From: a virus
Taxonomy: Duplodnaviria > Heunggongvirae > Uroviricota > Caudoviricetes
DNA: 13,463 nucleotides
Direction: 5' to 3' (one strand)
Virus record (IMG/VR): IMGVR_UViG_2529292718_000021
The position numbers and the translations under genes were made by a program. Shown in pieces: positions 3,900-13,463 of this stretch. Position 1 is the stretch's first letter, and the number at the start of each line of letters is the position of its first letter. Below the pieces are notes generated by a model. It was not told where the DNA came from and ran no database searches. It worked only from the letters and a program-made list of their open reading frames with translations.

Positions 3900-4074
3900 G
3901 CCAACAGGAACACCACAACCACAAAAACGCTACAAAGATGCCCACGGAGCACTCGTTACTGTCGAAAGCGTGTCTCACAACCGAGTGACGTTTTATCGCG
4001 ACGGGTATCAATCGCCATGCGTACAACCGCTGGCACGTTTCATGAAGGAGTTCGCGGAGGTTAACAAATGCTAA
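3892..4074 (+). CDS. DUF4222-like small prophage protein (60 aa), start overlapping the antirepressor stop.
   Basis: Translation ...HGALVTVESVSHNRVTFYRDGYQSPCVQPLARF... fits the DUF4222 pattern as remembered; translational coupling. Confidence 0.6.
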   Translation: MSKPTGTPQPQKRYKDAHGALVTVESVSHNRVTFYRDGYQSPCVQPLARFMKEFAEVNKC

Positions 4075-4505
4075 CCGTCCAGAAGAAGACATTTTCACTG
4101 GCAGGTATGTCGCCAAAATCCAGCAATATGACGGCAAAGTCAGGCATTAATACAGCAGATACAAGCAAAGTTTATCATTTGCTGGTGGTCGGAACGGATG
4201 CCTTAACCATACCAGAAATCTCGGGCGATGATATTAGCATTGAGAAGGTCAGCGGCTGCGCCAGAAAATTTCTGGTCGTAGATGATGTCTTCCGCTCGTG
4301 TAGTGACTCCACAAAAACATTCGTCCACGTGCGTGACGTTAACGAAATGAGCGCGATGTACTGTGCATCTGGTGCTTCCAATACTGAGTTTTCGGAGTCC
4401 ATAAAAAAGAGCTTGCCGTTATGCGGCAACACGGTTTATGGTTATAAGGCACCTCATAAAACGGGTGCCGGGATTAGGACCCCGCAGGCAATCGAGGCGA
4501 TACAT

Positions 4506-4526
4506 GACGCGCCAGCGTCTTTTTTT
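4506..4526 (+). terminator. Candidate intrinsic terminator inside the immunity-like leader upstream of the Icd-like gene.
   Basis: Stem GACGC (4506-4510) / GCGTC (4515-4519), loop GCCA, followed by seven T at 4520-4526. Confidence 0.4.
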
Positions 4527-4534
4527 GTATCGGC

Positions 4535-4665
4535 GCACACGCACACCTTATCAATGGTGGGCTGTATGGGGCTGACTTCGGTCAGGCTGGTTTCCTTGAT
4601 TGCCAGTAGTCCTAACCCTGTACAGTCCACCGCCAGCGAGCTTAGGACCTCCGGCGGTGGCTATA
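4535..4665 (+). ncRNA. Candidate structured leader / antisense-RNA-type immunity element (C4/CI-like), tentative.
   Basis: UUCG-tetraloop hairpin CTGAC-TTCG-GTCAG at 4572-4585; 8-bp complementary pair CCACCGCC (4627-4634) / GGCGGTGG (4653-4660) immediately before the Icd-like RBS. In P1 and P4 the icd/immunity genes are preceded by a processed antisense RNA. Coordinates approximate. Confidence 0.25.
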
Positions 4666-4690
4666 AACCATCAATCAAGGAGGCTGCCAC

Positions 4691-4885
4691 ATGCTGGCTA
4701 CTACCCCTACCCAAAAACCGCAATTTATCTGGATTATCGCCGCAGTTCGCCGCGATTGCCCGACAATTACCGCCAAAATTCATCATATTGCTGCCGAGTC
4801 TGAACGCGATGCTCGCCGTTCTCTGGTGCGCGATCACGTCTGCTTTTTTGCTGGTCGTATCCGCATGGAGGTGGCACATGATTAA
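4691..4885 (+). CDS. icd: Host cell division inhibitor Icd-like protein (64 aa).
   Basis: Perfect SD AAGGAGG 7 nt upstream; translation QFIWIIAAVRR...ESERDARRSLV..FFAGRI fits the Icd-like pattern (F.W...A.RR...ARR.L...FAAR) as remembered. Confidence 0.75.
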   Translation: MLATTPTQKPQFIWIIAAVRRDCPTITAKIHHIAAESERDARRSLVRDHVCFFAGRIRMEVAHD

Positions 4886-5096
4886 AACCTACGATGTGCA
4901 TATGGATCCCCTCGAACGCACAAGCCAGATCATCACACTGACAGAAGTGATTAACGACATTCTGGTGAGCAACTCTCCCTCACGAGACGAAAGACTGAAG
5001 GCGTTACTCGCGATATTGGATCTCGCCGTTCGTGACGTTCATTTCCTGCTGGAAGGTGGCGAAATGCCAGTAAAAACGGGGGCAACCAATGAATAA
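4878..5096 (+). CDS. Hypothetical small protein (72 aa), overlapping the icd stop by 8 nt.
   Basis: SD GGAGGTGG upstream of ATG 4878; helical, protein-like translation. Confidence 0.6.
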   Translation: MIKTYDVHMDPLERTSQIITLTEVINDILVSNSPSRDERLKALLAILDLAVRDVHFLLEGGEMPVKTGATNE

Positions 5097-5283
5097 CTCA
5101 ATTAATACCCCTCGCCTTACGTCCGCACTTCAATTAATCGAGCAAGCAGCGGCTGTCCTGGTTGCTGTCAGTCTTTCGGCTGAAGAAATGGACGCTGCTG
5201 ATGTCGTGGATGCGATTAAAGCGTGCTCATCTTTGGTTAACGATGCCCGTGCAGAGCTGGTAATTCTTGGTGGTGAAAAATGA
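5089..5283 (+). CDS. Hypothetical small protein (64 aa), translationally coupled.
   Basis: Start overlaps the preceding stop; G-rich SD-like tract upstream. Confidence 0.6.
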   Translation: MNNSINTPRLTSALQLIEQAAAVLVAVSLSAEEMDAADVVDAIKACSSLVNDARAELVILGGEK

Positions 5284-5543
5284 ATATCAACTTAATTTAT
5301 CGTCATCCGTGTGAGCTGGAAATTGAATCATTGCTGGGGCGTGAAGAGCCATATCCAGACACATTTACTCCCGCAGATTGCGCGACTGAACGGCTTACCA
5401 GAGCGCGCACAGGTCTGGTTCATGTGATGAATGAGATTATTCCCTCGGTGGGAGGGGAACAGGCGACAGTAATCAATAGCTGGCTACAAAAAGTTACCTC
5501 CCTGATAGATATCAGTTTAATCGATGTGGAGAGTGCGAAATGA
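5280..5543 (+). CDS. Hypothetical small protein (87 aa), ATGA start/stop overlap.
   Basis: SD GGTGGTG upstream; coupled to neighbours. Confidence 0.65.
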   Translation: MNINLIYRHPCELEIESLLGREEPYPDTFTPADCATERLTRARTGLVHVMNEIIPSVGGEQATVINSWLQKVTSLIDISLIDVESAK

Positions 5544-5761
5544 CCAACATCCAGCTCATTGAAGCGCAATGTCGCATCGAACAGGTTCAGACTGTTTTAG
5601 GGTTCTGGCTTGAAGGGGCCGGCTCAAGCAACAGAGACAAGTTAATGATTGGCGCGGTTATGTCACTACTCAATGGCGTACCAGAAGCTATTCAGGAAGC
5701 GGACGAATTGTTGGGCAAATATGAGTTACAGAATCATTCAGGCGAGGCGAAACATGAATAA
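5540..5761 (+). CDS. Hypothetical small protein (73 aa), ATGA overlap.
   Basis: SD GGAGAG upstream; coupled to neighbours. Confidence 0.65.
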   Translation: MTNIQLIEAQCRIEQVQTVLGFWLEGAGSSNRDKLMIGAVMSLLNGVPEAIQEADELLGKYELQNHSGEAKHE

Positions 5762-5839
5762 TTTCTTAACTTTCCATGCAGAAGCAACGCCTGACGGCGT
5801 AAACATCATGTATGGCAGCAGAAATCAGAGAGGTAAAAC

Positions 5840-6577
5840 ATGAACAATAACTATTGCATACTGCAGGGAATGACCAGAACGGAGCGCGAAGAATTAAAAA
5901 GTTTCGCTACACAGTGCGGGAATGCTGGCGACATCCAAAGTCTGGAACGCACTTTAATTATGATTGCGCACTGGATGCGCCAGGGGCAAAGAGTTTCATT
6001 TACTGAATATGCCAGCCAGTGGACAGAGGCACAGCGCGAACGGAGCGACGGTAATCACTCAACACCCGAAATGGCGAAGCAATGGCCTTTCAGTGGTAAA
6101 CGCTGTATCAGTCCCGGTGGTTCAGATTATTACCCTGCTGGTGTGGGAGATGAGCCATGTTGTGACGAGACTGAAATCCGCCACGCAGTGACAGTAATTA
6201 CCGCTGAATACCCACAATTTAACCTTGACGGACTGGCGCTCCACAACCGGAATGCGGACTGGGAAAACCCGCTTGATAACCCGTCATTTATCGTATCGGC
6301 GAAAAGCTGCCTGAGATGGATCAGAGACAACGGGATGAGTAATGCCCAGATTGAGAGCTTCCCGCAGGATAACCCCACATCTGACACGTTGAAGCATGAA
6401 GTGGAGCGATATAACCAGATAAACCACCAGCACAGTGATCACCCGCACTATATCCCCAACGGAGCATTTATTGCGGCGATGGTGGCAAGCGGCTACAAGG
6501 TTAAGCCAGCGGGAAGAATGAACGCATTTTTCAATATTTCAAAAAAGGGATTATGTGCTGCTATGGGTAAAAATTAA
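5840..6577 (+). CDS. Hypothetical protein (245 aa), last gene of the small-gene operon; sits immediately upstream of an iteron-like repeat cluster.
   Basis: SD GAGAGGT upstream; long ORF; family not recognised by eye. Confidence 0.75.
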   Translation: MNNNYCILQGMTRTEREELKSFATQCGNAGDIQSLERTLIMIAHWMRQGQRVSFTEYASQWTEAQRERSDGNHSTPEMAKQWPFSGKRCISPGGSDYYPAGVGDEPCCDETEIRHAVTVITAEYPQFNLDGLALHNRNADWENPLDNPSFIVSAKSCLRWIRDNGMSNAQIESFPQDNPTSDTLKHEVERYNQINHQHSDHPHYIPNGAFIAAMVASGYKVKPAGRMNAFFNISKKGLCAAMGKN

Positions 6578-6582
6578 ATAAA

Positions 6583-6686
6583 TGGTACAGGTCTGTACAG
6601 GTGGGGAGAGGTCATTTTTACCCACCTGTACCACCTGCAGGCCGCGCCACACAAGGGTTTGTGACATGGTGGTACAGGTGGTACAG
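6583..6686. repeat. Iteron-like cluster of GGTACAGG(TGG) motifs in direct and inverted orientation; candidate origin or operator array.
   Basis: Copies at 6584-6591, 6594-6604, 6622-6631 (inverted, CCACCTGTAC), a degenerate one at 6633-6641, and 6671-6686 (two overlapping). All in non-coding DNA just after the 245-aa gene stop. Confidence 0.6.
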
Positions 6687-6840
6687 CAAAAACAGCGATT
6701 TTCTTTATAAGGTATGTTTTGCTCATCTGGCAGACGGAGGTATTCGCTGCGGTTTGGCACATAGCCCAGAACAGCAAAGAGTTTTACGAGACTTTTGTAA
6801 AATCCAGTGTACAAGGGCGTGACGTTTTTGAAGGTGAGCA

Positions 6841-6857
6841 CTACGAAATTTTCGTAG
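6841..6857. repeat. Perfect palindrome CTACGAAA-T-TTTCGTAG; candidate protein-binding site.
   Basis: 8-bp arms are exact reverse complements, read directly. Confidence 0.5.
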
Positions 6858-7051
6858 TTCAAAAAATAGCCTCTGAGATGTTGTTATGCCTGTTCAGCAA
6901 ACCATCCGCATAGCTGATCGCGAATCAAATTACCAATGGAGCCAGAAGCAAGGGCAGAACTGGAAAGCGCCTGCCGTGAAGAGTAATGCGACTCCATAAA
7001 TATAGTTTTTAGAGTCCATAAAAAAACTGTCAAAACCTGACATACAGAACG

Positions 7052-7084
7052 ATGCCACCAGCTACTGAACGGTGGCATTTTTTT
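7052..7084 (+). terminator. Rho-independent terminator.
   Basis: 8-bp stem ATGCCACC (7052-7059) / GGTGGCAT (7071-7078), 11-nt loop, followed by a T-run at 7079-7084. Confidence 0.7.
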
Positions 7085-7117
7085 GTGCTATTTGTTTCAT
7101 ATTTTGCAATCACAATG

Positions 7118-7146
7118 ATGAATGTTGCGTTTTATGAAACTATAAT
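7118..7146 (+). promoter_or_regulatory. Candidate sigma70 promoter for the RHH/447-aa/705-aa operon: consensus -10 TATAAT at 7141-7146 with a weak -35.
   Basis: Perfect TATAAT hexamer about 35 nt upstream of the ATG at 7181; strong SD AAGGGGGG at 7169-7176; directly downstream of a terminator. Confidence 0.35.
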
Positions 7147-7180
7147 GACTGTTGTTTTATACAGTTCTAAGGGGGGCGTT

Positions 7181-7354
7181 ATGGCTATTTCAGTAAAGCC
7201 AGTATTGATAAGTGAGAAGCAAATGGAAGCGATAAAGAAAATTCAGGAGGAGCAGCGTAAAAAATCAGAGGTAGGAGTTGCGCCAACGATCCACGAAATT
7301 GCTCGGGGATTAATGGATAAGGCGCTGGCTTACACTTTAACTGGACGTGGGTAA
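7181..7354 (+). CDS. Small protein (57 aa), putative ribbon-helix-helix-like DNA-binding protein; first gene of the operon.
   Basis: Strong RBS; N-terminal beta-strand-then-helix pattern (ISVKPVLISEKQMEAIKKI) is consistent with an RHH fold. Fold assignment is a guess. Confidence 0.55.
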   Translation: MAISVKPVLISEKQMEAIKKIQEEQRKKSEVGVAPTIHEIARGLMDKALAYTLTGRG

Positions 7355-7358
7355 ATTT

Positions 7359-8702
7359 ATGGCTACGTGGCAACAGGGTATTAATTCTGGTGGTTTTCTG
7401 GCTGGCATCGGTGCGCAAAATGAGAATGCGCCAAAGGCAAGCGACATTAACGCAACGCTTGGTCTGATCCGCGAAAACAATGAACTGGCTCGCTCAGGTG
7501 CAAATAACGTTGCTCTGACAGGTCTTCGTGGTCTGGCTGGAGTTGCTGACATTTATAAGCAGCAGCAACAGCAGGAACGTAAAGCGGCATTCCAGAAAGG
7601 TTATGCAGATGCTTATGCGTCCGGTGACAGGGAGCAGATGCGTAATCTTATTACAGCATTCCCAGAAGAGTTTGAGGAAGTCCGTAAAGGGATGAGTTAT
7701 GTCGATGATGCTCAAAGGGATGATTATGGCAATCTGGCGCTCAAAGCACAGGTAGCCTCATCGCTTGGTCAGGGCGCATTTGGCAGGTTCATGATGGATA
7801 ATGAGCAGGAGATGCGTCGTTTAGGTATCCCTCCAGAAACTATTGCTGAAATGCAGGTTAATGACCCGCAGGGCTTCCAGCATTTCGCAGGTAATCTGGC
7901 GCTGTTTTCTCTCGGTCATGAGAAGTATTTCGATATCAAAGATCAAATGGAAGGTCGTCGACTTGAGCAAGGGCGACTGGATGAAAGTATGCGTCAGGCT
8001 GACATGGAGAACGCGAGAGGATGGGCAAATATCCAGAACGCTCAACTAGACAGGGCTCAGCGAGCACAAATTCACTCAGATGAGATGGGATTGAAGCTAA
8101 TGGAGCTGGGGCAAAAAGGTAAGCCGTCAGCAGACTTAATTAAGGGATTAAATTCTGACATTACCAATTTTGGCAAAAATTATAACTCTGTCAGAGCGGC
8201 GGCAAACTCTCTGCAAGCCCTTAGCAAGGTAAATACTGGCGCTGCCCAACTTGGGATTATCTTCAACTACATGAAATCTCTTGACCCGCAGTCAGTCGTT
8301 CGTGAAGGCGAACAGGTTCAGGTAATGCGGTCTGATGGCATATGGGGACAAATCAAAGGATACATAGACCAGCTTAATGCTGGAAACGGCCTGTCGCAGG
8401 AGGCAAAGGATAACATTGTTAACGCCGCAAAAATCAACGCCAATGCTATGGGGCAGCAGTTTAACCAGCAGGTTGACGAGTATCTCGATACATATGGAGA
8501 AACTATTCCTCAGGGGCTAAGAAAAAGCCTTGAAAGAAGGAAAGCGAAGCTATTTGACGATGTTTCCGGGCAGCCTACATCACAGGCTGGCACTGGACAG
8601 GCAAAAGCGGCAACCGGAGGAATATCAGAAGGCGCAACGGCAACCAACCCTAAAACTGGTCAGAAAATCATTTACAGGAACGGAAAATGGCAGCAAATGT
8701 AA
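7359..8702 (+). CDS. Large hypothetical protein (447 aa from ATG 7359; 451 aa if GTG 7347 is used). Gln/Asn/Ala/Gly-rich, predicted coiled-coil, no catalytic motif seen.
   Basis: Long ORF; poly-Q tract (QQQQQ); no Walker A, no HxH or other enzymatic signature by eye. Confidence 0.8.
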   Translation: MATWQQGINSGGFLAGIGAQNENAPKASDINATLGLIRENNELARSGANNVALTGLRGLAGVADIYKQQQQQERKAAFQKGYADAYASGDREQMRNLITAFPEEFEEVRKGMSYVDDAQRDDYGNLALKAQVASSLGQGAFGRFMMDNEQEMRRLGIPPETIAEMQVNDPQGFQHFAGNLALFSLGHEKYFDIKDQMEGRRLEQGRLDESMRQADMENARGWANIQNAQLDRAQRAQIHSDEMGLKLMELGQKGKPSADLIKGLNSDITNFGKNYNSVRAAANSLQALSKVNTGAAQLGIIFNYMKSLDPQSVVREGEQVQVMRSDGIWGQIKGYIDQLNAGNGLSQEAKDNIVNAAKINANAMGQQFNQQVDEYLDTYGETIPQGLRKSLERRKAKLFDDVSGQPTSQAGTGQAKAATGGISEGATATNPKTGQKIIYRNGKWQQM

Positions 8703-10804
8703 TCTTACCGGAAGGTTTTGTGCTCGATGAACAACCTGATAACTCACAGTTTCCTGATAGTTCACAGCTTCCTGATGGTTTTGTGCTTGATGCCCAACCA
8801 GAACAGCAGCAATCACCTTTGGTTTCACCAGAGGAAAATTCCAGACAGGAAAATGTTGTTAATAATGCTAACGGTTTCGACCGTTTTATGTATGGCGTTC
8901 TCAGTGGATTGATGGATGTTGGTAAAGGTGTTGGCCTGTTTCAGGATATGACACCAGAAGAGCAAGCCGCAATTCAGTCTCTACAGCAGAAGTTAGCGGC
9001 AAAACCATCAACCGCACAAGATGTTGGTGAGTTCGTTGGACAAGCAGCGCCATTTGTTAGTGGTGGTGGGATTATTTCTCAGGTTCCCAAAGGGGCGGCA
9101 AGACTGGCTGCCGCCGCAGGGCTTGGGGCTGGAGAAGGGGCTATTGTAGCCAATGGAACAAATAGCGATGTTGCTTCCGGCGCTGCTATTGGCGCTGTGG
9201 CTGGCCCTGTAGCCGAACTTGCTGGCCCTGCAATTAATAAAATAGCTGGGAAATTAACCAAGAAGAATGTTTCTTCGATTCCAGATATTGAGGGGATTAC
9301 TCCTACCGAAGAGAAAATTCGTAAGTTATCTGCACAAGGCAACCCAAATCTTGCCTCTTCGCTTGAAGGGCTAGATCTAAAACCTCAGAAAGAAATTGTT
9401 GAGGCTGCAAATAGGCTTCATGTTGATTCAGTTCTTCCTTCTCATTTATCAGGAAATGAGCAATACCAAGCTGTAGAGCAAGCCCTAAAGTCACGGACAG
9501 GATCAGCGTTAAAAGCTCAAGAAGATAAAGCAATAAGCGAATTAGCCTCTAGTGCTGGCAAGATAATCGATGATGTTGCTGGTGCGCCAGATGCGTTAGC
9601 TATGAGCGAAAAATATATTTATCAGATAAATAGTAGAATGGAAGCACTAAAAAACCGTAGTGATCAGTTATATAAACGTGTTGATTCCGCTCTATCACCA
9701 AGAACAAAAGTCGAAGCAAATAACACAAGCACTATGCTGGAAAAAATCGCTGATGATTTAGGAGGGTGGGATAATCTTGACCCAATAGAAAAGCGAGTTT
9801 TTACAGCAATAAACCCCGGCCCAGATAGCATCCTAACGTATGCAAATTTAAACAGGCAAAGGCGTTTAGTTGGTGATGCCCTAAATAAAAAGCAGGGGCC
9901 ATACAAAGATGCTGATAAAGAAGCGCTATCAAGACTATATGGAGCTTTAGCTGAAGACCAAAAATCTGTCTTATCCAATACTGGATACTTGCGAGATTTC
10001 GAAGTCGCACAACGCCTTGTAGCTATGAGAAAAAACTTAGAAAGGCAAATGGTAAATCTTCGCGGGAAAACACTTAATGGGGATATAGCGTATAAAGTAA
10101 CGAATTCTCTTCAATCTATGGCAAAAGGTGATGCGAGAGGGTTTCGTGAGATTATGCAAAATACTCCATCAAGAACATTGCGAAGGGAGCTAGTAGGAAC
10201 AGCATTAAGAGATATGCTTTCCTCTGGGAAGCGTGGGGCCGACTTTAATCCATCTGGCTTTGCAGATTGGTGGCAAAACTTGCAACACAGTGGACAGCTA
10301 AAGACTTTGGCTGAACATTTGCCAAAAGAAACAATGAGCGGACTATATGATGTATACAAAGTTGCCAGAGCAATAAAAAATGCTAAAGCGCATGAAATAT
10401 CTACTGGTAAGCTGAATGAGTTTGTAAACAGATTTAATCGGGTAACAGCTCCATACGAACTAGCAGCAAAACACATTCAAAAAATAGGCACGATGGTACG
10501 CGCTCATTTTGGATCGCTTGGAGCCATTGCTGGGGCTGATATTGGAGCAAGATTGGCGAGTAAAGCTCGATTAGCTGGTGGAGCAGGGGCGGCTGATGCT
10601 GCGGATAAATTAATTGCCTCGCCAGCCTTCCAGAGCGCAGTAAAAAATCTACACGGAAAAGCGCCTGGGCACATTGTTGATTCACGTATCAGGCGCTCCC
10701 CTCAATGGAAGAGTTTTTTTAACTCTCTTCCTGAACAGGAAAAACGGACCATCGCCAGACTGGGCATCATTACTTGGCTATCTAATGATCCAGATAATGA
10801 CTAG
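8687..10804 (+). CDS. Large hypothetical protein (705 aa), start overlapping the upstream gene by 16 nt. Has an N-terminal tandem peptide repeat and Gly/Ala-zipper-like segments; the gene is compositionally mosaic.
   Basis: Repeat LPEGFVLDEQP / LPDGFVLDAQP (DNA repeat GGTTTTGTGCT[C/T]GATG at 8714-8729 and 8777-8792, 63-bp period); segments such as AAAAGLGAGEGAIVANG and GSLGAIAGADIGARLA; the 5' third is near backbone GC while the 3' ~1.5 kb is clearly AT-richer. Confidence 0.85.
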   Translation: MAANVILPEGFVLDEQPDNSQFPDSSQLPDGFVLDAQPEQQQSPLVSPEENSRQENVVNNANGFDRFMYGVLSGLMDVGKGVGLFQDMTPEEQAAIQSLQQKLAAKPSTAQDVGEFVGQAAPFVSGGGIISQVPKGAARLAAAAGLGAGEGAIVANGTNSDVASGAAIGAVAGPVAELAGPAINKIAGKLTKKNVSSIPDIEGITPTEEKIRKLSAQGNPNLASSLEGLDLKPQKEIVEAANRLHVDSVLPSHLSGNEQYQAVEQALKSRTGSALKAQEDKAISELASSAGKIIDDVAGAPDALAMSEKYIYQINSRMEALKNRSDQLYKRVDSALSPRTKVEANNTSTMLEKIADDLGGWDNLDPIEKRVFTAINPGPDSILTYANLNRQRRLVGDALNKKQGPYKDADKEALSRLYGALAEDQKSVLSNTGYLRDFEVAQRLVAMRKNLERQMVNLRGKTLNGDIAYKVTNSLQSMAKGDARGFREIMQNTPSRTLRRELVGTALRDMLSSGKRGADFNPSGFADWWQNLQHSGQLKTLAEHLPKETMSGLYDVYKVARAIKNAKAHEISTGKLNEFVNRFNRVTAPYELAAKHIQKIGTMVRAHFGSLGAIAGADIGARLASKARLAGGAGAADAADKLIASPAFQSAVKNLHGKAPGHIVDSRIRRSPQWKSFFNSLPEQEKRTIARLGIITWLSNDPDND

Positions 10805-10809
10805 TGAAT

Positions 10810-10823
10810 GGCCACGGATGGCC
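10810..10823. terminator. Short inverted repeat GGCCA-CGGA-TGGCC between the convergent 705-aa and membrane-protein genes; weak candidate terminator.
   Basis: 5-bp GC-rich stem followed on the + strand by moderately T-rich TCAATCTTTATTCTTT. Confidence 0.35.
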
Positions 10824-11249
10824 TCAATCTTTATTCTTTGAAATAGAGTCATTGATCTTTTCGAAACACCAATGAAATCCACAAAAGAGAGCTACACCAA
10901 TATAACAATACAAAACTATCAACCACCTTTCAGTGTCCGAAGGGTAAAAAACATCAATTACATAAGCAACACCAATTGGTATTAATGCTAGTAATAACAT
11001 CGACACAGGACGTACAAACTTCTGAACTATATCAATTTTATAGAACCACAAGGCGGTATGTTTAATGATATAAGTAAAGATGGCTGCGCCAATAATGGCA
11101 AAAAACACCATCGATAAAGTCGGGTATAACTTTGCGACAATTAAACCCAACAAAATAATTATAACTGCCTGCCCCCTCACACCAACCCTCCCTTTAGCTT
11201 TGTTTAGAATGGCAATCATCATATATCCAAGACATGGCATTTGGTACAT
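10824..11249 (-). CDS. Integral membrane protein (141 aa, about 4 predicted TM helices), AT-rich, convergent with the 705-aa gene. An in-frame GTG at 11180 preceded by GGGAGGG may be the true start.
   Basis: Four hydrophobic stretches of 18-21 residues (AVIIILLGLIVAKLY, LSMVFFAIIGAAIFTYII, VSMLLLALIPIGVAYVIDVFY, WLIVLYCYIGVALFCGFHW); low GC. Confidence 0.75.
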   Translation of the reverse strand: MYQMPCLGYMMIAILNKAKGRVGVRGQAVIIILLGLIVAKLYPTLSMVFFAIIGAAIFTYIIKHTALWFYKIDIVQKFVRPVSMLLLALIPIGVAYVIDVFYPSDTERWLIVLYCYIGVALFCGFHWCFEKINDSISKNKD

Positions 11250-11295
11250 AGCTTGGGTCGGGATTTCAAATCCGCTCCCCGTTGATGGGGCCGTT

Positions 11296-11442
11296 ACAGT
11301 ACGCGCATATCCGCTTTATGTGAAACAGGAAGATTTTTCTGATATCACTGTCACAGCAAAACACCAATTTCGTGACCAGTACGCGCGCGAGGTGTATCAG
11401 TTGCAAAATTTTTTGCAGCTGTGTCCGACCAGTACGCACGCG
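11296..11442. repeat. Three degenerate copies of a GC-alternating motif (ACAGTACGCGC, ACCAGTACGCGCGCG, ACCAGTACGCACGCG) plus palindrome TGCAAAA-TT-TTTTGCA at 11402-11417, in DNA with no convincing gene.
   Basis: Motifs at 11296-11306, 11375-11389 and 11428-11442. They fall in different reading frames relative to the overlapping ORF 11080-11478, so the repeat is at DNA level. Confidence 0.55.
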
Positions 11443-11660
11443 ATGGCGGGGAGCACCATAAAACTGTTCTCTACATAAGACAGAGTGGTGGTGATGTGTT
11501 GATTATCGGCGTATATGCGCACAGGACGCGCTATGACGATGTTTTATGCGGGTACACCAATCACATGTATCTGGTGTGATAAATCGCGTTACATGACCTC
11601 TCATGTTGTGCTGGTGGTTATCACGACGTTCTGAATCTGGCCTTTGCCTGATATTTTGCG

Positions 11661-11680
11661 ACAAGTACGCGCGCGTAGCA
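11661..11680. repeat. Well-conserved copy of the ACAAGTACGCGCGCGTAGCA element, containing the perfect 12-bp palindrome TACGCGCGCGTA.
   Basis: Near-identical to the copy at 13030-13050 including flanks (TTTGCG-ACAAGTACGCGCGCGTAGCA). Confidence 0.6.
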
Positions 11681-11703
11681 TCGACAGCATACACATTGGA
11701 TAT

Positions 11704-11904
11704 TCATTTTGTGACCAATGCGATAAGTAGCGGGATAAGAATTGATAAAATCAACAGGACGATGATCCACTTCTGATTCTCGTCCATCTTATCTGCTAGG
11801 CGACGCTCCATTCCGTGCATATCACCGCGAATGGCAATCATCTCATTGCGAACATCCGAGAAGTGGTTGGCTTGATGTTCAATGTGTGGCGTTCTGCCTT
11901 TCAT
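11704..11904 (-). CDS. Small membrane protein (66 aa), N-terminal charged/coiled region plus a C-terminal TM helix; XhlA-like prophage protein (tentative).
   Basis: C-terminal WIIVLLILSILIPLLIALV hydrophobic helix; architecture resembles short XhlA-family proteins as remembered. Confidence 0.55.
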   Translation of the reverse strand: MKGRTPHIEHQANHFSDVRNEMIAIRGDMHGMERRLADKMDENQKWIIVLLILSILIPLLIALVTK

Positions 11905-11983
11905 TCCTGATCCTCACCTATCGTCACCACCTGCTGGTGTATAAAGGTATTGGCCCAAGCAGCTTTCCAATGGGCACTCATGT

Positions 11984-12439
11984 TTATACGCTGACCTTAC
12001 AATCAATCACCGCTTTTAACTTTTCAGCATTGCTTCCCTGACGCTTCCACGCGCTGTAAATATCTTTATCCCACGCTTTACCAGCTTTTGTTTGATAGCC
12101 TGCTTCATTGATCCGTTCAGCTATCACACGCCCATTATCAAATCCCTGTCGGATGGTATCGGCAATGATCTTTATAACTGCCGTTTCGTTATATGGCTTT
12201 GGTGGGATGTTCGGCTTTCCGGCAATAAGCGACGCAGCGGCTTTTTCCATGCGCTCCACCAGCCCAAGCATTCGTGAATCAATAGACTTTTTCGGCTGTC
12301 CCAGCTTCATGCGAATCGCATCAACAAGCCAGGAGGTTTTATCTCCTCCAGAAGCGAGAACAGACCGATTAAACTCATCCTGCAATTCAGATGGGATGCG
12401 GAACGCGACCAGATTAGATTTGCTCATTGCAAAGACCAT
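11984..12439 (-). CDS. Ribbon-helix-helix (Arc/Mnt/CopG-like) DNA-binding protein with a C-terminal extension; putative repressor. Alternative start at 12427.
   Basis: N-terminal NLVAFRIPSELQDEFNRSVLASGGDKTSWLVDAIRMKL follows the Arc/Mnt RHH pattern (compare P22 Mnt FNFRMPMEVREKL...); palindromic operator-like site immediately upstream. Confidence 0.7.
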   Translation of the reverse strand: MVFAMSKSNLVAFRIPSELQDEFNRSVLASGGDKTSWLVDAIRMKLGQPKKSIDSRMLGLVERMEKAAASLIAGKPNIPPKPYNETAVIKIIADTIRQGFDNGRVIAERINEAGYQTKAGKAWDKDIYSAWKRQGSNAEKLKAVIDCKVSV

Positions 12440-12456
12440 ATCAGTGAGTAATATCC

Positions 12457-12475
12457 ATACAGTATACCACTGTAT
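12457..12475. promoter_or_regulatory. Palindrome ATACAGT-ATACC-ACTGTAT upstream of the RHH gene; candidate operator.
   Basis: 7-bp arms are exact reverse complements; a related ACACTGTTATAC follows at 12477-12490. Confidence 0.45.
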
Positions 12476-12541
12476 AACACTGTTATACGCTCAAATATCA
12501 GCCAGAAAATAACGGACCAATCACAAATCTATCGCTGTGTT

Positions 12542-12592
12542 GTTGGTTCAGAGCTGGGCTGTGTTGGTTCAAAATGAGTTGATGTTGGTTCA
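12542..12592. repeat. Three direct GTTGGTTCA iterons spaced exactly 21 bp apart.
   Basis: Copies at 12542-12550, 12563-12571 and 12584-12592. Confidence 0.7.
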
Positions 12593-12635
12593 ATATTTCA
12601 GAAAAAACACAATAAAAACAACAATCTTTACAAAT

Positions 12636-12662
12636 TGAACCAACTGAACCAACTGAACCAAC
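12636..12662. repeat. Three tandem TGAACCAAC 9-mers (reverse complement of the upstream iterons), separated from them by an AT-rich spacer and overlapping the -35 region of the perC-like gene.
   Basis: Copies at 12636-12644, 12645-12653 and 12654-12662; AT-rich 12593-12635. Confidence 0.7.
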
Positions 12663-12685
12663 ACCTTTTTGCTTATCTATATAAT
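12654..12685 (+). promoter_or_regulatory. Candidate promoter of the PerC-like gene: consensus -10 TATAAT at 12680-12685, -35 embedded in the last TGAACCAAC repeat.
   Basis: TATAAT hexamer 14 nt upstream of the ATG at 12699, SD GAGAGG in between; non-canonical spacer. Confidence 0.35.
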
Positions 12686-12698
12686 CTGAGAGGCAGAA

Positions 12699-12980
12699 AT
12701 GATAAGGGACAGGAAAGCTGAAGAGCTGGAGTCAAAAGGGCTATACCGGAGAGCTGCCGCACGATGGATGGAAGTCATGCTGTTATGCACCGAGGACGAT
12801 GATCGGGAATGGATAAAGCGCCGCCGTGAAACGTGTCTGGAGAACGTGAAGCGCCCGCCCGTGAAGGTTGAGGAATTTGGCGACCTGCATAAAGCTGTTA
12901 CCGAAACGCAACACCGCATGGGGATAGCGCAACCGAACGGTAACGCCTTCCGGTTAAATGGCGGCAAGAGGCAAAGGTAG
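12699..12980 (+). CDS. perC: PerC-family transcriptional activator (93 aa).
   Basis: N-terminal MIRDRKAEELESKGLYRRAAARWMEVM matches the conserved PerC/Pch N-terminus as remembered. Confidence 0.8.
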   Translation: MIRDRKAEELESKGLYRRAAARWMEVMLLCTEDDDREWIKRRRETCLENVKRPPVKVEEFGDLHKAVTETQHRMGIAQPNGNAFRLNGGKRQR

Positions 12981-12984
12981 ACCA

Positions 12985-13006
12985 CCAGAGGGAAATCATC
13001 CTCTGG
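12985..13006 (+). terminator. Hairpin CCAGAGG-N8-CCTCTGG downstream of perC; weak candidate terminator.
   Basis: 7-bp perfect stem, followed by moderately U-rich CTGGCGGTTTCTGGTATTT. Confidence 0.35.
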
Positions 13007-13029
13007 CTGGCGGTTTCTGGTATTTCGGG

Positions 13030-13050
13030 ACAAGTACGCGCGCGCGTAGC
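13030..13050. repeat. Second well-conserved copy of the ACAAGTACGCGCGCG(CG)TAGC element, containing the perfect 14-bp palindrome TACGCGCGCGCGTA.
   Basis: Matches 11661-11680 including flanking bases. Confidence 0.6.
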
Positions 13051-13277
13051 ACCCAATCGGTGAGGAAATAGCGGCGACCTGAATGGTCAAAATCACAACG
13101 CAGCTATCCCCGTAAGCAGCGCTTAACGGAATAGCAGTAACCTGAATCCAGTGGGGAGGGGGTAGTCAAATCTCTACAGCCCTGACTATCCGGGACTGCC
13201 CGCCCCATCGTTTTTTTATACCCGCAAAAAATGAAATTTAATCCGGGCGTGTTTCATCCTTCCAGAGGGTATGACGT

Positions 13278-13463
13278 ATGACACCACGCGAAATAGCCTT
13301 ATTGACCATCGCCAAACTTGAGCACGGAGGCCACCAGCTTACACAGGCAGATCAACGGGAGATAGAACGCTCAGTTAATGCCGATATAGCCCGGCGCGAC
13401 AGGTTCCGCGAAATGATGCGAGCACCTGCCTACCAGTGGAAGAAGCCAGCGCCGCGCAGGTAG
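13278..13463 (+). CDS. Hypothetical small protein (61 aa).
   Basis: SD AGAGGG 8 nt upstream of the ATG; complete ORF ending at the window edge. Confidence 0.55.
   Translation: MTPREIALLTIAKLEHGGHQLTQADQREIERSVNADIARRDRFREMMRAPAYQWKKPAPRR

Follow-up and report, generated by a model that had tools for sequence, protein, structure and literature searches.

The 13,463-nucleotide stretch studied here (the window; IMG/VR virus record IMGVR_UViG_2529292718_000021, Caudoviricetes) is an EcCIMP1-like phage-inducible chromosomal island (PICI) of Escherichia coli. Between a leftward gene for a ribbon-helix-helix (RHH)-like protein and a rightward gene of the perC family, it carries a compact array of short repeats around an AT-rich core. 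Comparing this array with those of related islands, we propose with a probability of about 0.75 that positions 12541-12662 are the outer half, unit B, of a bipartite PICI-type replication origin that would be read by the C-terminal domain of a primase-helicase, Pri-Rep, and that in this island the unit is a non-cognate orphan attached to perC. In the proposed mechanism, two opposed sets of GTTGGTTCA iterons flank an AT-rich region that would melt, and the iterons would be recognized by the TOPRIM-DUF927 Pri-Rep of EcCIMP1-type islands through its C-terminal DNA-binding domain. Compact relatives have unit B within a few hundred bp 3' of pri-rep, its outer edge holding the probable promoter of the next genes (ssb-perC). 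In the EcCIMP1-like islands of E. coli, this unit is split from its partner, unit A, by a cargo block of about 6 kb that consists of P22-like ejection genes and, in some islands, the RHH gene. The island in the window is of the other primase type (DUF5906), and since that primase is also deleted, unit B would be unable to fire from the element's own genes.

The repeats on which this proposal rests had been described in the original prediction as three direct copies of GTTGGTTCA at an exact 21-bp spacing, an AT-rich spacer and three contiguous inverted copies, and all of them are in place (Table 1). The outer iterons are separated by 21 + 21 bp from start to start, which puts them on a single face of the helix; the inner ones abut with a 9-bp period, and both sets are oriented toward the spacer. 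In a composition scan, G+C is 20% at 12593-12635 as against 45-50% in the flanks, and the spacer closes with a conserved AAAACAA-N4-CTTTACAAAT (12626-12635). These six are the only exact copies of GTTGGTTCA in the window. When up to one mismatch is allowed, 11 matches are found against 3.1 expected (none of 200 shuffles of the window gets to 11), and the near-identical locus L003 has 6 exact copies against 0.21 expected, a number that no shuffle reaches. The outer set is in the same register in L001, L003, L024, and L028, and is more variable in L015-L020. At the Rfam gathering threshold, no RNA family is found in 12440-13300; the only hits, int-alpA, isrK, and C4, are elsewhere in the window. 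Opposed iteron sets around an AT-rich region, here 3 + 3 exact copies of GTTGGTTCA, are what characterizes the origins of PICIs and of Staphylococcus aureus pathogenicity islands (SaPIs). Such origins also lie directly 3' of the rep or pri-rep gene; the window's unit lies instead between the RHH gene and perC, and the window's pri-rep gene has been deleted.

In CP53 (L001) and in EcCIMP1 (L024), the six-iteron/AT-rich unit is present twice. Unit A starts 25-30 bp past the stop codon of the gene encoding the 918-aa TOPRIM-DUF927 primase-helicase (Pri-Rep), while unit B, at a distance of 6-8 kb and in the inverse orientation to A, is the copy upstream of perC. A unit A directly 3' of the primase gene is also found in Tatumella, Cedecea, Morganella, Chimaeribacter, Pantoea, Erwinia, and Proteus, and the loci with a unit directly 3' of pri-rep (L008, L015-L020, and L026) make 8 genera when taken with the E. 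coli islands. In L008, L016, L019, L020, and L026 (a compact island of E. coli), no more than about 100 bp separate unit A from the unit B that comes after it, so that unit B is within about 400 bp of the pri-rep stop codon. There it reads as a spaced triple, an AT-rich stretch up to CTTTACAAAT, a block of three CTTTACAAATTGAACCAAC, TATATA, and the next gene. The CTTTACAAAT border is common to units A and B across genera, and the gene order in L025 and L026 is pri-rep, units A and B, ssb, perC. Upstream of perC, the unit B of the window and that of EcCIMP1 share 97.9% of their DNA sequence. Because the same anatomy and order recur in the compact relatives, the window's unit is assigned by anatomy and position to the outer half of a two-unit origin region, parted from the primase gene by a cargo block in EcCIMP1-like islands. 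The original prediction had offered an "origin-like iteron/AT-rich unit" as the alternative to a regulator's binding site, and the comparison with relatives, where unit A stands 3' of pri-rep, favors that alternative.

The iterons change together with the primase. The architecture of the units stays the same, while the iterons go with the primase allele: they are GTTGTCTCA in L025, in both A and B; they are GGGATAAC in L010, AGTGTGTCA in L012, and GTCGGTTCA/TCCGGTTCA in L023; and GGTACAGG iterons are found 3' of the DUF5906-type primase in L002, L003, L014, L028, and L029. Near the C-terminus, the motif GRG[YF]QRKSPR[IV]xxRQ is common to all ten of the GTTGGTTCA-type primases, and it is at exactly this motif that the primases with other iterons deviate (4/4). 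Five iteron types thus track variants of the C-terminal motif, as would be expected of PICI iterons, which are specific to the Rep allele. Over their first 768 aa, the primases of L025 and L026 are 90% identical; their divergence is in the final ~150, where L025 has GRV-REG in place of QRKSPRI. Compared with the L001 primase, those of L016 and L020 are more distant than the L023 primase over the N-terminal and middle parts, whereas in the C-terminal domain they are the closer ones, and it is L016 and L020 that retain GTTGGTTCA, while L023 does not. The helicase part of Pri-Rep is homologous to 8tch, a SaPI "Pathogenicity island protein" (E=1e-11), and to 5dgk, the helicase Cch. The C-terminal winged helix of SaPI Rep binds iterons located directly 3' of rep, on either side of an AT-rich region (PMC9371898). 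A like origin organization has been described in Gram-negative PICIs, and is functional for EcCICFT073 (Fillol-Salom et al., 2018, PMC6092414). Since the iterons covary with the Pri-Rep C-terminal motif and SaPI Rep provides the precedent, we strongly infer that GTTGGTTCA is bound by Pri-Rep (WP_001244110 or WP_001244111).

The iteron sequence is linked neither to the RHH protein nor to PerC, and both had to be considered as readers. The preferred idea of the original prediction was that the RHH protein, or some other multimeric regulator, binds the palindrome next to the RHH start and the six iterons cooperatively and so controls perC. RHH proteins often bind tandem repeats cooperatively, and the RHH gene does stand next to unit B, both here and in L001, L003, L015, L017, L018, and L028. 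However, two classes of RHH protein and operator (described below) both occur beside identical GTTGGTTCA copies, class 1 in the window and class 2 in L015, L017, and L018. Among the informative RHH loci from outside E. coli, 12/15 have no GTTGGTTCA beside the RHH gene, as is so for most class-1 loci. Conversely, the RHH gene is missing from EcCIMP1, L025, L026, and L029, all of which have iteron units, and the iterons that are found 3' of the primase gene have no RHH gene anywhere near. The covariation and this pattern of presence and absence rule out the RHH protein as the iteron reader, and cooperative control of perC by this or another multimeric regulator is highly improbable.

Binding of the iterons by PerC itself, to autoregulate its own promoter, would account for the position of unit B, which comes directly before perC in every E. 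coli island examined. It fits poorly with the pairing of proteins and repeats: the PerC of L025 is 93.5% identical to that of the window, yet the iterons there are GTTGTCTCA, while the PerC of L003 is only 53% identical, yet the iterons are the same. Moreover, within the 20 kb examined, perC is not detectable in L016, L019, and L020, three loci with GTTGGTTCA units, and in L015, L017, and L018 the unit-B-type copy beside the RHH gene leads to genes other than perC. The mismatches in L025 and L003 rule out PerC as the iteron reader, and an autoregulatory role of the array is scarcely credible.

How the unit came to be an orphan can be read from L003. Window positions 4677-5820 correspond to L003 4590-5733, and 5811-12779 to L003 9001-15969 with 99.8% identity. 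Window 4677-12779 is 99.2-99.8% identical to an L003-type island, apart from a clean deletion. With it went orf200, the gene for the DUF5906 primase-helicase, and the GGTACAGG iteron set that comes first in L003. The exact 3,268-bp deletion is seen in none of the complete E. coli genomes sampled. Because the primase gene is gone, the window island as sequenced encodes no initiator, and the initiator that it lost would have been mismatched to GTTGGTTCA. What is left of the island's own origin is a second iteron set (Table 1). In L002, L003, L028, and L029, GGTACAGG/GTACAGGT repeats are found directly 3' of the DUF5906 primase gene as well, and their presence at both places puts a two-gene insert between the origin units in the DUF5906 replicon type too. 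In L003, L028, and L029, where the DUF5906-primase island is intact, the GTTGGTTCA unit also stands before perC, with or without the RHH gene. Judged from these neighborhoods, the GTTGGTTCA unit and perC move as one module in E. coli, and unit B has probably been retained since the perC promoter region is within it. The window's copy is probably inert for replication.

This attachment brings perC itself into question. The original prediction had correctly placed the rightward gene in the PerC family, to which it is matched by Pfam (Table 1), and had noted that PerC and Pch proteins activate the genes of the enterocyte effacement locus (LEE). The allele found here points the other way. A tblastn comparison finds 100% identity between the PerC encoded here and the copies of MP1 and CP53 (WP_000617443.1), and it is the protein known as EcCIMP1_025, which silenced LEE1-lux in Citrobacter rodentium, whereas the PerC of enteropathogenic E. 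coli activated LEE1-lux (PMC11773190). Its upstream region probably contains the perC promoter. Downstream of unit B, a TATATA/TATAAT element (TTGC-TTAT-TATAAT) is kept, and the -35 position belonging to the window's TATAAT lands in the last iteron; an overlap of this iteron with the perC -35 is plausible.

These features support a different output for the same binding protein, namely that unit B is mainly a transcriptional site, where the Pri-Rep of an induced cognate PICI would switch perC (ancestrally ssb-perC) on or off, with firing at unit A alone. The TATATA/TATAAT element and a gene start follow unit B, and neither the element nor the gene start follows unit A. The E. coli unit stays with perC regardless of its left neighbor or of the primase type, and unit A by itself satisfies the published definition of a PICI origin (PMC6092414). 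On the other hand, unit B has the full anatomy of an origin (opposed sets, helical phasing, an AT-rich core, and the border of unit A), which is excessive for a simple operator. In P4, moreover, there is the precedent of two iteron sites that are both needed for replication. A mainly transcriptional role, which overlaps with the origin proposal, is thus possible but on balance unlikely. 

Several observations weigh against unit B being an origin half that is read by Pri-Rep. The window, L003, L028, and L029 carry the unit although their primase type has different iterons, which means that it is not kept there for cognate origin function. As these four copies are ~99% identical, their conservation tells little about selection. 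That the E. coli unit B always travels with perC would be equally expected if its role were mainly transcriptional. The covariation itself comes from 14 aligned primases, with one closely matched pair (L025/L026). A literature search for the iteron 9-mer returned unrelated primer-like matches only; neither these iterons nor an origin of EcCIMP1 turned up in any paper found, and the EcCIMP1 papers are silent on the origin (PMC11773190). A sigma-70 promoter and terminator scan of 12300-13300 called nothing, and the perC promoter is a candidate.

The origin proposal can be taken one step further. The orphan GTTGGTTCA unit might be a functional module that responds in trans, the Pri-Rep of a co-resident, induced EcCIMP1-type PICI either replicating the primase-less island or switching perC. 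Virulence-gene silencing would then be coupled to satellite induction, and EcCIMP1-family origins would be truly bipartite, like crr/ori of P4, their halves set apart by inserted cargo genes. We consider this extension doubtful.

Among known systems, the origins of the PICI/SaPI class are the closest. The likeness extends to the opposed sets of short iterons around an AT-rich region, to the location of the unit directly 3' of the (Pri-)Rep gene in relatives, to iterons that are specific to the Rep allele with their specificity in its C-terminal domain, and to a helicase homologous to SaPI Rep (8tch) and to Cch. The host element, an int-alpA-pri/rep island, is that of a PICI. The differences are that here there are two units, A and B, in mirror orientation, and that in EcCIMP1-like islands they are split by ~6 kb of cargo, with B before perC and not beside rep. 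Iterons are 9-10 bp long, vs. 5-6 bp in SaPIs. The window in addition lacks any rep gene, and the module that its island has of its own differs in specificity. The SaPI replication origin itself was reportedly worked out by Ubeda and colleagues in 2007 and 2012. The mechanism class is already established, and the two-unit form that can be split, of which an orphan half survives here joined to the region upstream of perC, is a variation on it.

The satellite P4 also has a primase-helicase with two iteron sites, crr being directly 3' of the alpha gene and ori ~4.8 kb off in the divergent vis/sid intergenic region, both with repeats that alpha binds (NC_001609 annotation). The N-terminal primase domain of P4 alpha is 33% identical to the Pri-Rep proteins. 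L001 and L024 have an analogous layout, one site being next to the gene and the other far from it, but their repeats, C-terminal domain, and element type are not those of P4. P4 crr/ori is said to have been characterized by Flensburg and Calendar in 1987 and by Ziegelin and colleagues in 1993-95. Its repeats are TGTTCACC octamers (type I) vs. GTTGGTTCA here, and the C-terminal and helicase modules and the internal arrangement of repeats are different as well. The window's element, which has no sid, delta, or psu, belongs with the PICIs and not with the P4-like satellites, so that the likeness to P4 is one of analogy and not of membership.

The closest described element is EcCIMP1 (Pick, Stadel & Raivio, 2025, PMC11773190), a PICI of E. 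coli MP1 that is mobilized by the P22-like phage Kapi1 (PMC11773190). The island family, the gene order, and the PerC protein are the same. EcCIMP1 has the cognate TOPRIM-DUF927 primase and unit A, and no RHH gene, whereas the window island is without a primase gene. It is a recombinant with a DUF5906-type module, and its integrase is 28% identical to that of EcCIMP1.

Table 1. Features of the window discussed in the text, in order of position.
Feature	Position	Strand	Details
Deletion junction, 3,268 bp	5811..5820	.	10-bp microhomology ATGGCAGCAG; compare L003 5734-9000
Residual second iteron set of the island's own origin, GGTACAGG/GTACAGGT, both orientations	6584..6680	.	downstream of 245-aa open reading frame (5840-6577)
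RHH-like protein gene, 147 aa	11984..12427	-	open reading frame; alternative in-frame ATG 12439 gives 151 aa
Probable autoregulatory operator of RHH-like protein	12457..12488	.	ATACAGT-N5-ACTGTAT 12457-12475 overlapping GTATAACA-c-TGTTATAC 12472-12488
Outer iteron set, unit B: three (T)GTTGGTTCA	12541..12593; starts 12542, 12563, 12584	+	exact matches
AT-rich spacer	12594..12635	.	G+C ~20%; putative melting region
Inner iteron set, unit B: three TGAACCAAC (= GTTGGTTCA on - strand)	12636..12662; starts 12636, 12645, 12654	-	exact matches
Candidate perC promoter and leader	12663..12698	+	conserved TTGCTTAT-TATATAAT; TATAAT 12680-12685; Shine-Dalgarno GAGG 12690-12693
perC-family gene	12699..12980	+	Pfam PF06069, 104.5 bits vs cut-off 22.6, E=3.7e-30

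The leftward gene and its operator form a system of their own. That its product is an RHH regulator was an inference of the original prediction. The protein has no Pfam or NCBIfam match, and no informative family in PHROGs; a profile search against the Protein Data Bank (PDB) found nothing, and none of its 371 homologues has a Pfam domain, although one source labels one homologue "Arc-like DNA binding domain". The AF2 model (pLDDT 74) has two helices (13-26 and 30-41) after an N-terminal extended segment (pLDDT about 70), and a confident C-terminal domain. Foldseek against the PDB gives local matches to Arc, CopG, NikA, and VapB with TMt 0.58-0.75, all sub-threshold at E>1 (Arc 1bdv 0.64 and CopG 1ea4 0.75, both at E>1). 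The model thus weakly supports the RHH assignment. As in the Arc/MetJ/CopG repressors, an N-terminal strand may precede two helices, repeats of ~10 bp in tandem or inverted order lie over the gene's own promoter, and strand and operator covary. In contrast to these repressors, the RHH-like protein has an extra conserved C-terminal domain of ~65 aa and no significant family or fold match. This domain (residues ~81-143; 11984-12190) is the most conserved part of the protein, with GFDNGRIIAERLNEAGYQTKAGKAWDKDIYSAWKR and a pLDDT of about 90, and it matches no Pfam family and no PDB fold in Foldseek and profile searches. Because homologues consistently start with MSKS or MSNS, the start at 12427 is favored.

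The palindrome ATACAGT-N5-ACTGTAT, which the original prediction had placed by the RHH start, is indeed there, and a second one that it had not listed, GTATAACA-c-TGTTATAC, overlaps it. Together they overlap a conserved extended -10 of the minus strand, TGgTATACT (12461-12469 on the plus strand). With the RHH protein as query, 20 RHH loci were fetched from other Enterobacterales, of which L022 and L023, having only the C-terminal part of the gene, are uninformative for the operator. An operator element directly upstream of the RHH gene is kept in all informative loci, and it falls into two classes. In class 1, GTATAACAnTGTTATAC(...)TGgTATAaT goes with the protein start MSKSNL[VI]AFR. In class 2, a tandem TGTCTTAC-nn-TGTCTTAC(...)TGaTAAAAT goes with MSKSLSVTFR. 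The two classes comprise 12 and 7 loci (n=19), with zero exceptions. The strand residues thus track the repeated operator at the gene's own promoter, as they would in an RHH repressor, and going by this covariation the palindromes are probably the autoregulatory operator of the RHH-like protein. As the repeats abut the conserved extended -10, autorepression is its likely function.

The gene order of the window begins with a tyrosine integrase, an int-alpA RNA (1329-1395, Rfam), and an AlpA-like gene, followed by an AntA antirepressor, a DUF4222 gene, and an Ash-family gene. Next come ejection genes like those for P22 gp16 and gp20 and a gene for a small membrane protein, and after these the RHH-like gene and perC. 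The Ash-family gene (4068-5096) encloses a tandem isrK (63 bits) and C4 antisense RNA (80 bits) at 4449-4637. The long open reading frame may be an over-call that spans an RNA-based immunity region of the P1/P4 type; the matching MP1 region is annotated as a truncated ash gene and an Icd-like gene. The ejection-gene block (7347-10804), which comprises homologues of gp16 (PF16928, E=2.5e-73) and a gp20-like "DNA transfer protein", constitutes the cargo between units A and B, and its alleles differ among islands. 

Downstream of perC, a non-coding stretch of ~300 bp (12981-13277) that is kept in EcCIMP1-like islands extends to a 61-aa open reading frame, with a T-run at its end (13214-13220). 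This stretch has no Rfam match, and the RNA fold of 12975-13230 is not significant (z = -1.5). The 61-aa frame (13278-13463) has a 62%-identical paralogue across unit B in EcCIMP1 (L024 9052-9237 and 10057-10239), where the paralogue fills the position that the RHH gene has in the window, and homologues are found near the RHH gene in several genera. Repeats of other families, (T)GCGTACC and GGTATCC/GGATACC, are met again and again in the vicinity of the RHH gene or of the alpA_1 island end: in L010, L012-L014, L016, and L023 (300-450 bp upstream of the RHH gene), in L011, L020, and L021, and at L024 10330-10400. They occur in islands with differing primase and iteron types without tracking the primase, and may be arm-type sites of the integrase or excisionase near the island end.

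Islands that match the window are present in E. coli chromosomes by the hundreds, no deposited phage matches it, and a megablast of 11900-13463 against the phage collection gave no match. The EcCIMP1 family is matched in >1,000 of 5,426 complete E. coli genomes, and genomes with a match often have more than one matching place (median 2).

The island in the window is a replication-defective recombinant, and the local biological consequence may be small. For the family, these comparisons would locate the previously undescribed replication origin of the widespread EcCIMP1 satellites, and propose an initiator recognition motif in the C-terminal domain of Pri-Rep. The origin would consist of two units that cargo can separate, one of which travels with perC. 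As for the control of perC, the candidate regulator becomes Pri-Rep rather than the adjacent RHH protein, and the perC allele concerned is a LEE silencer. The proposal thus offers a directly testable link between satellite induction and the regulation of virulence genes.

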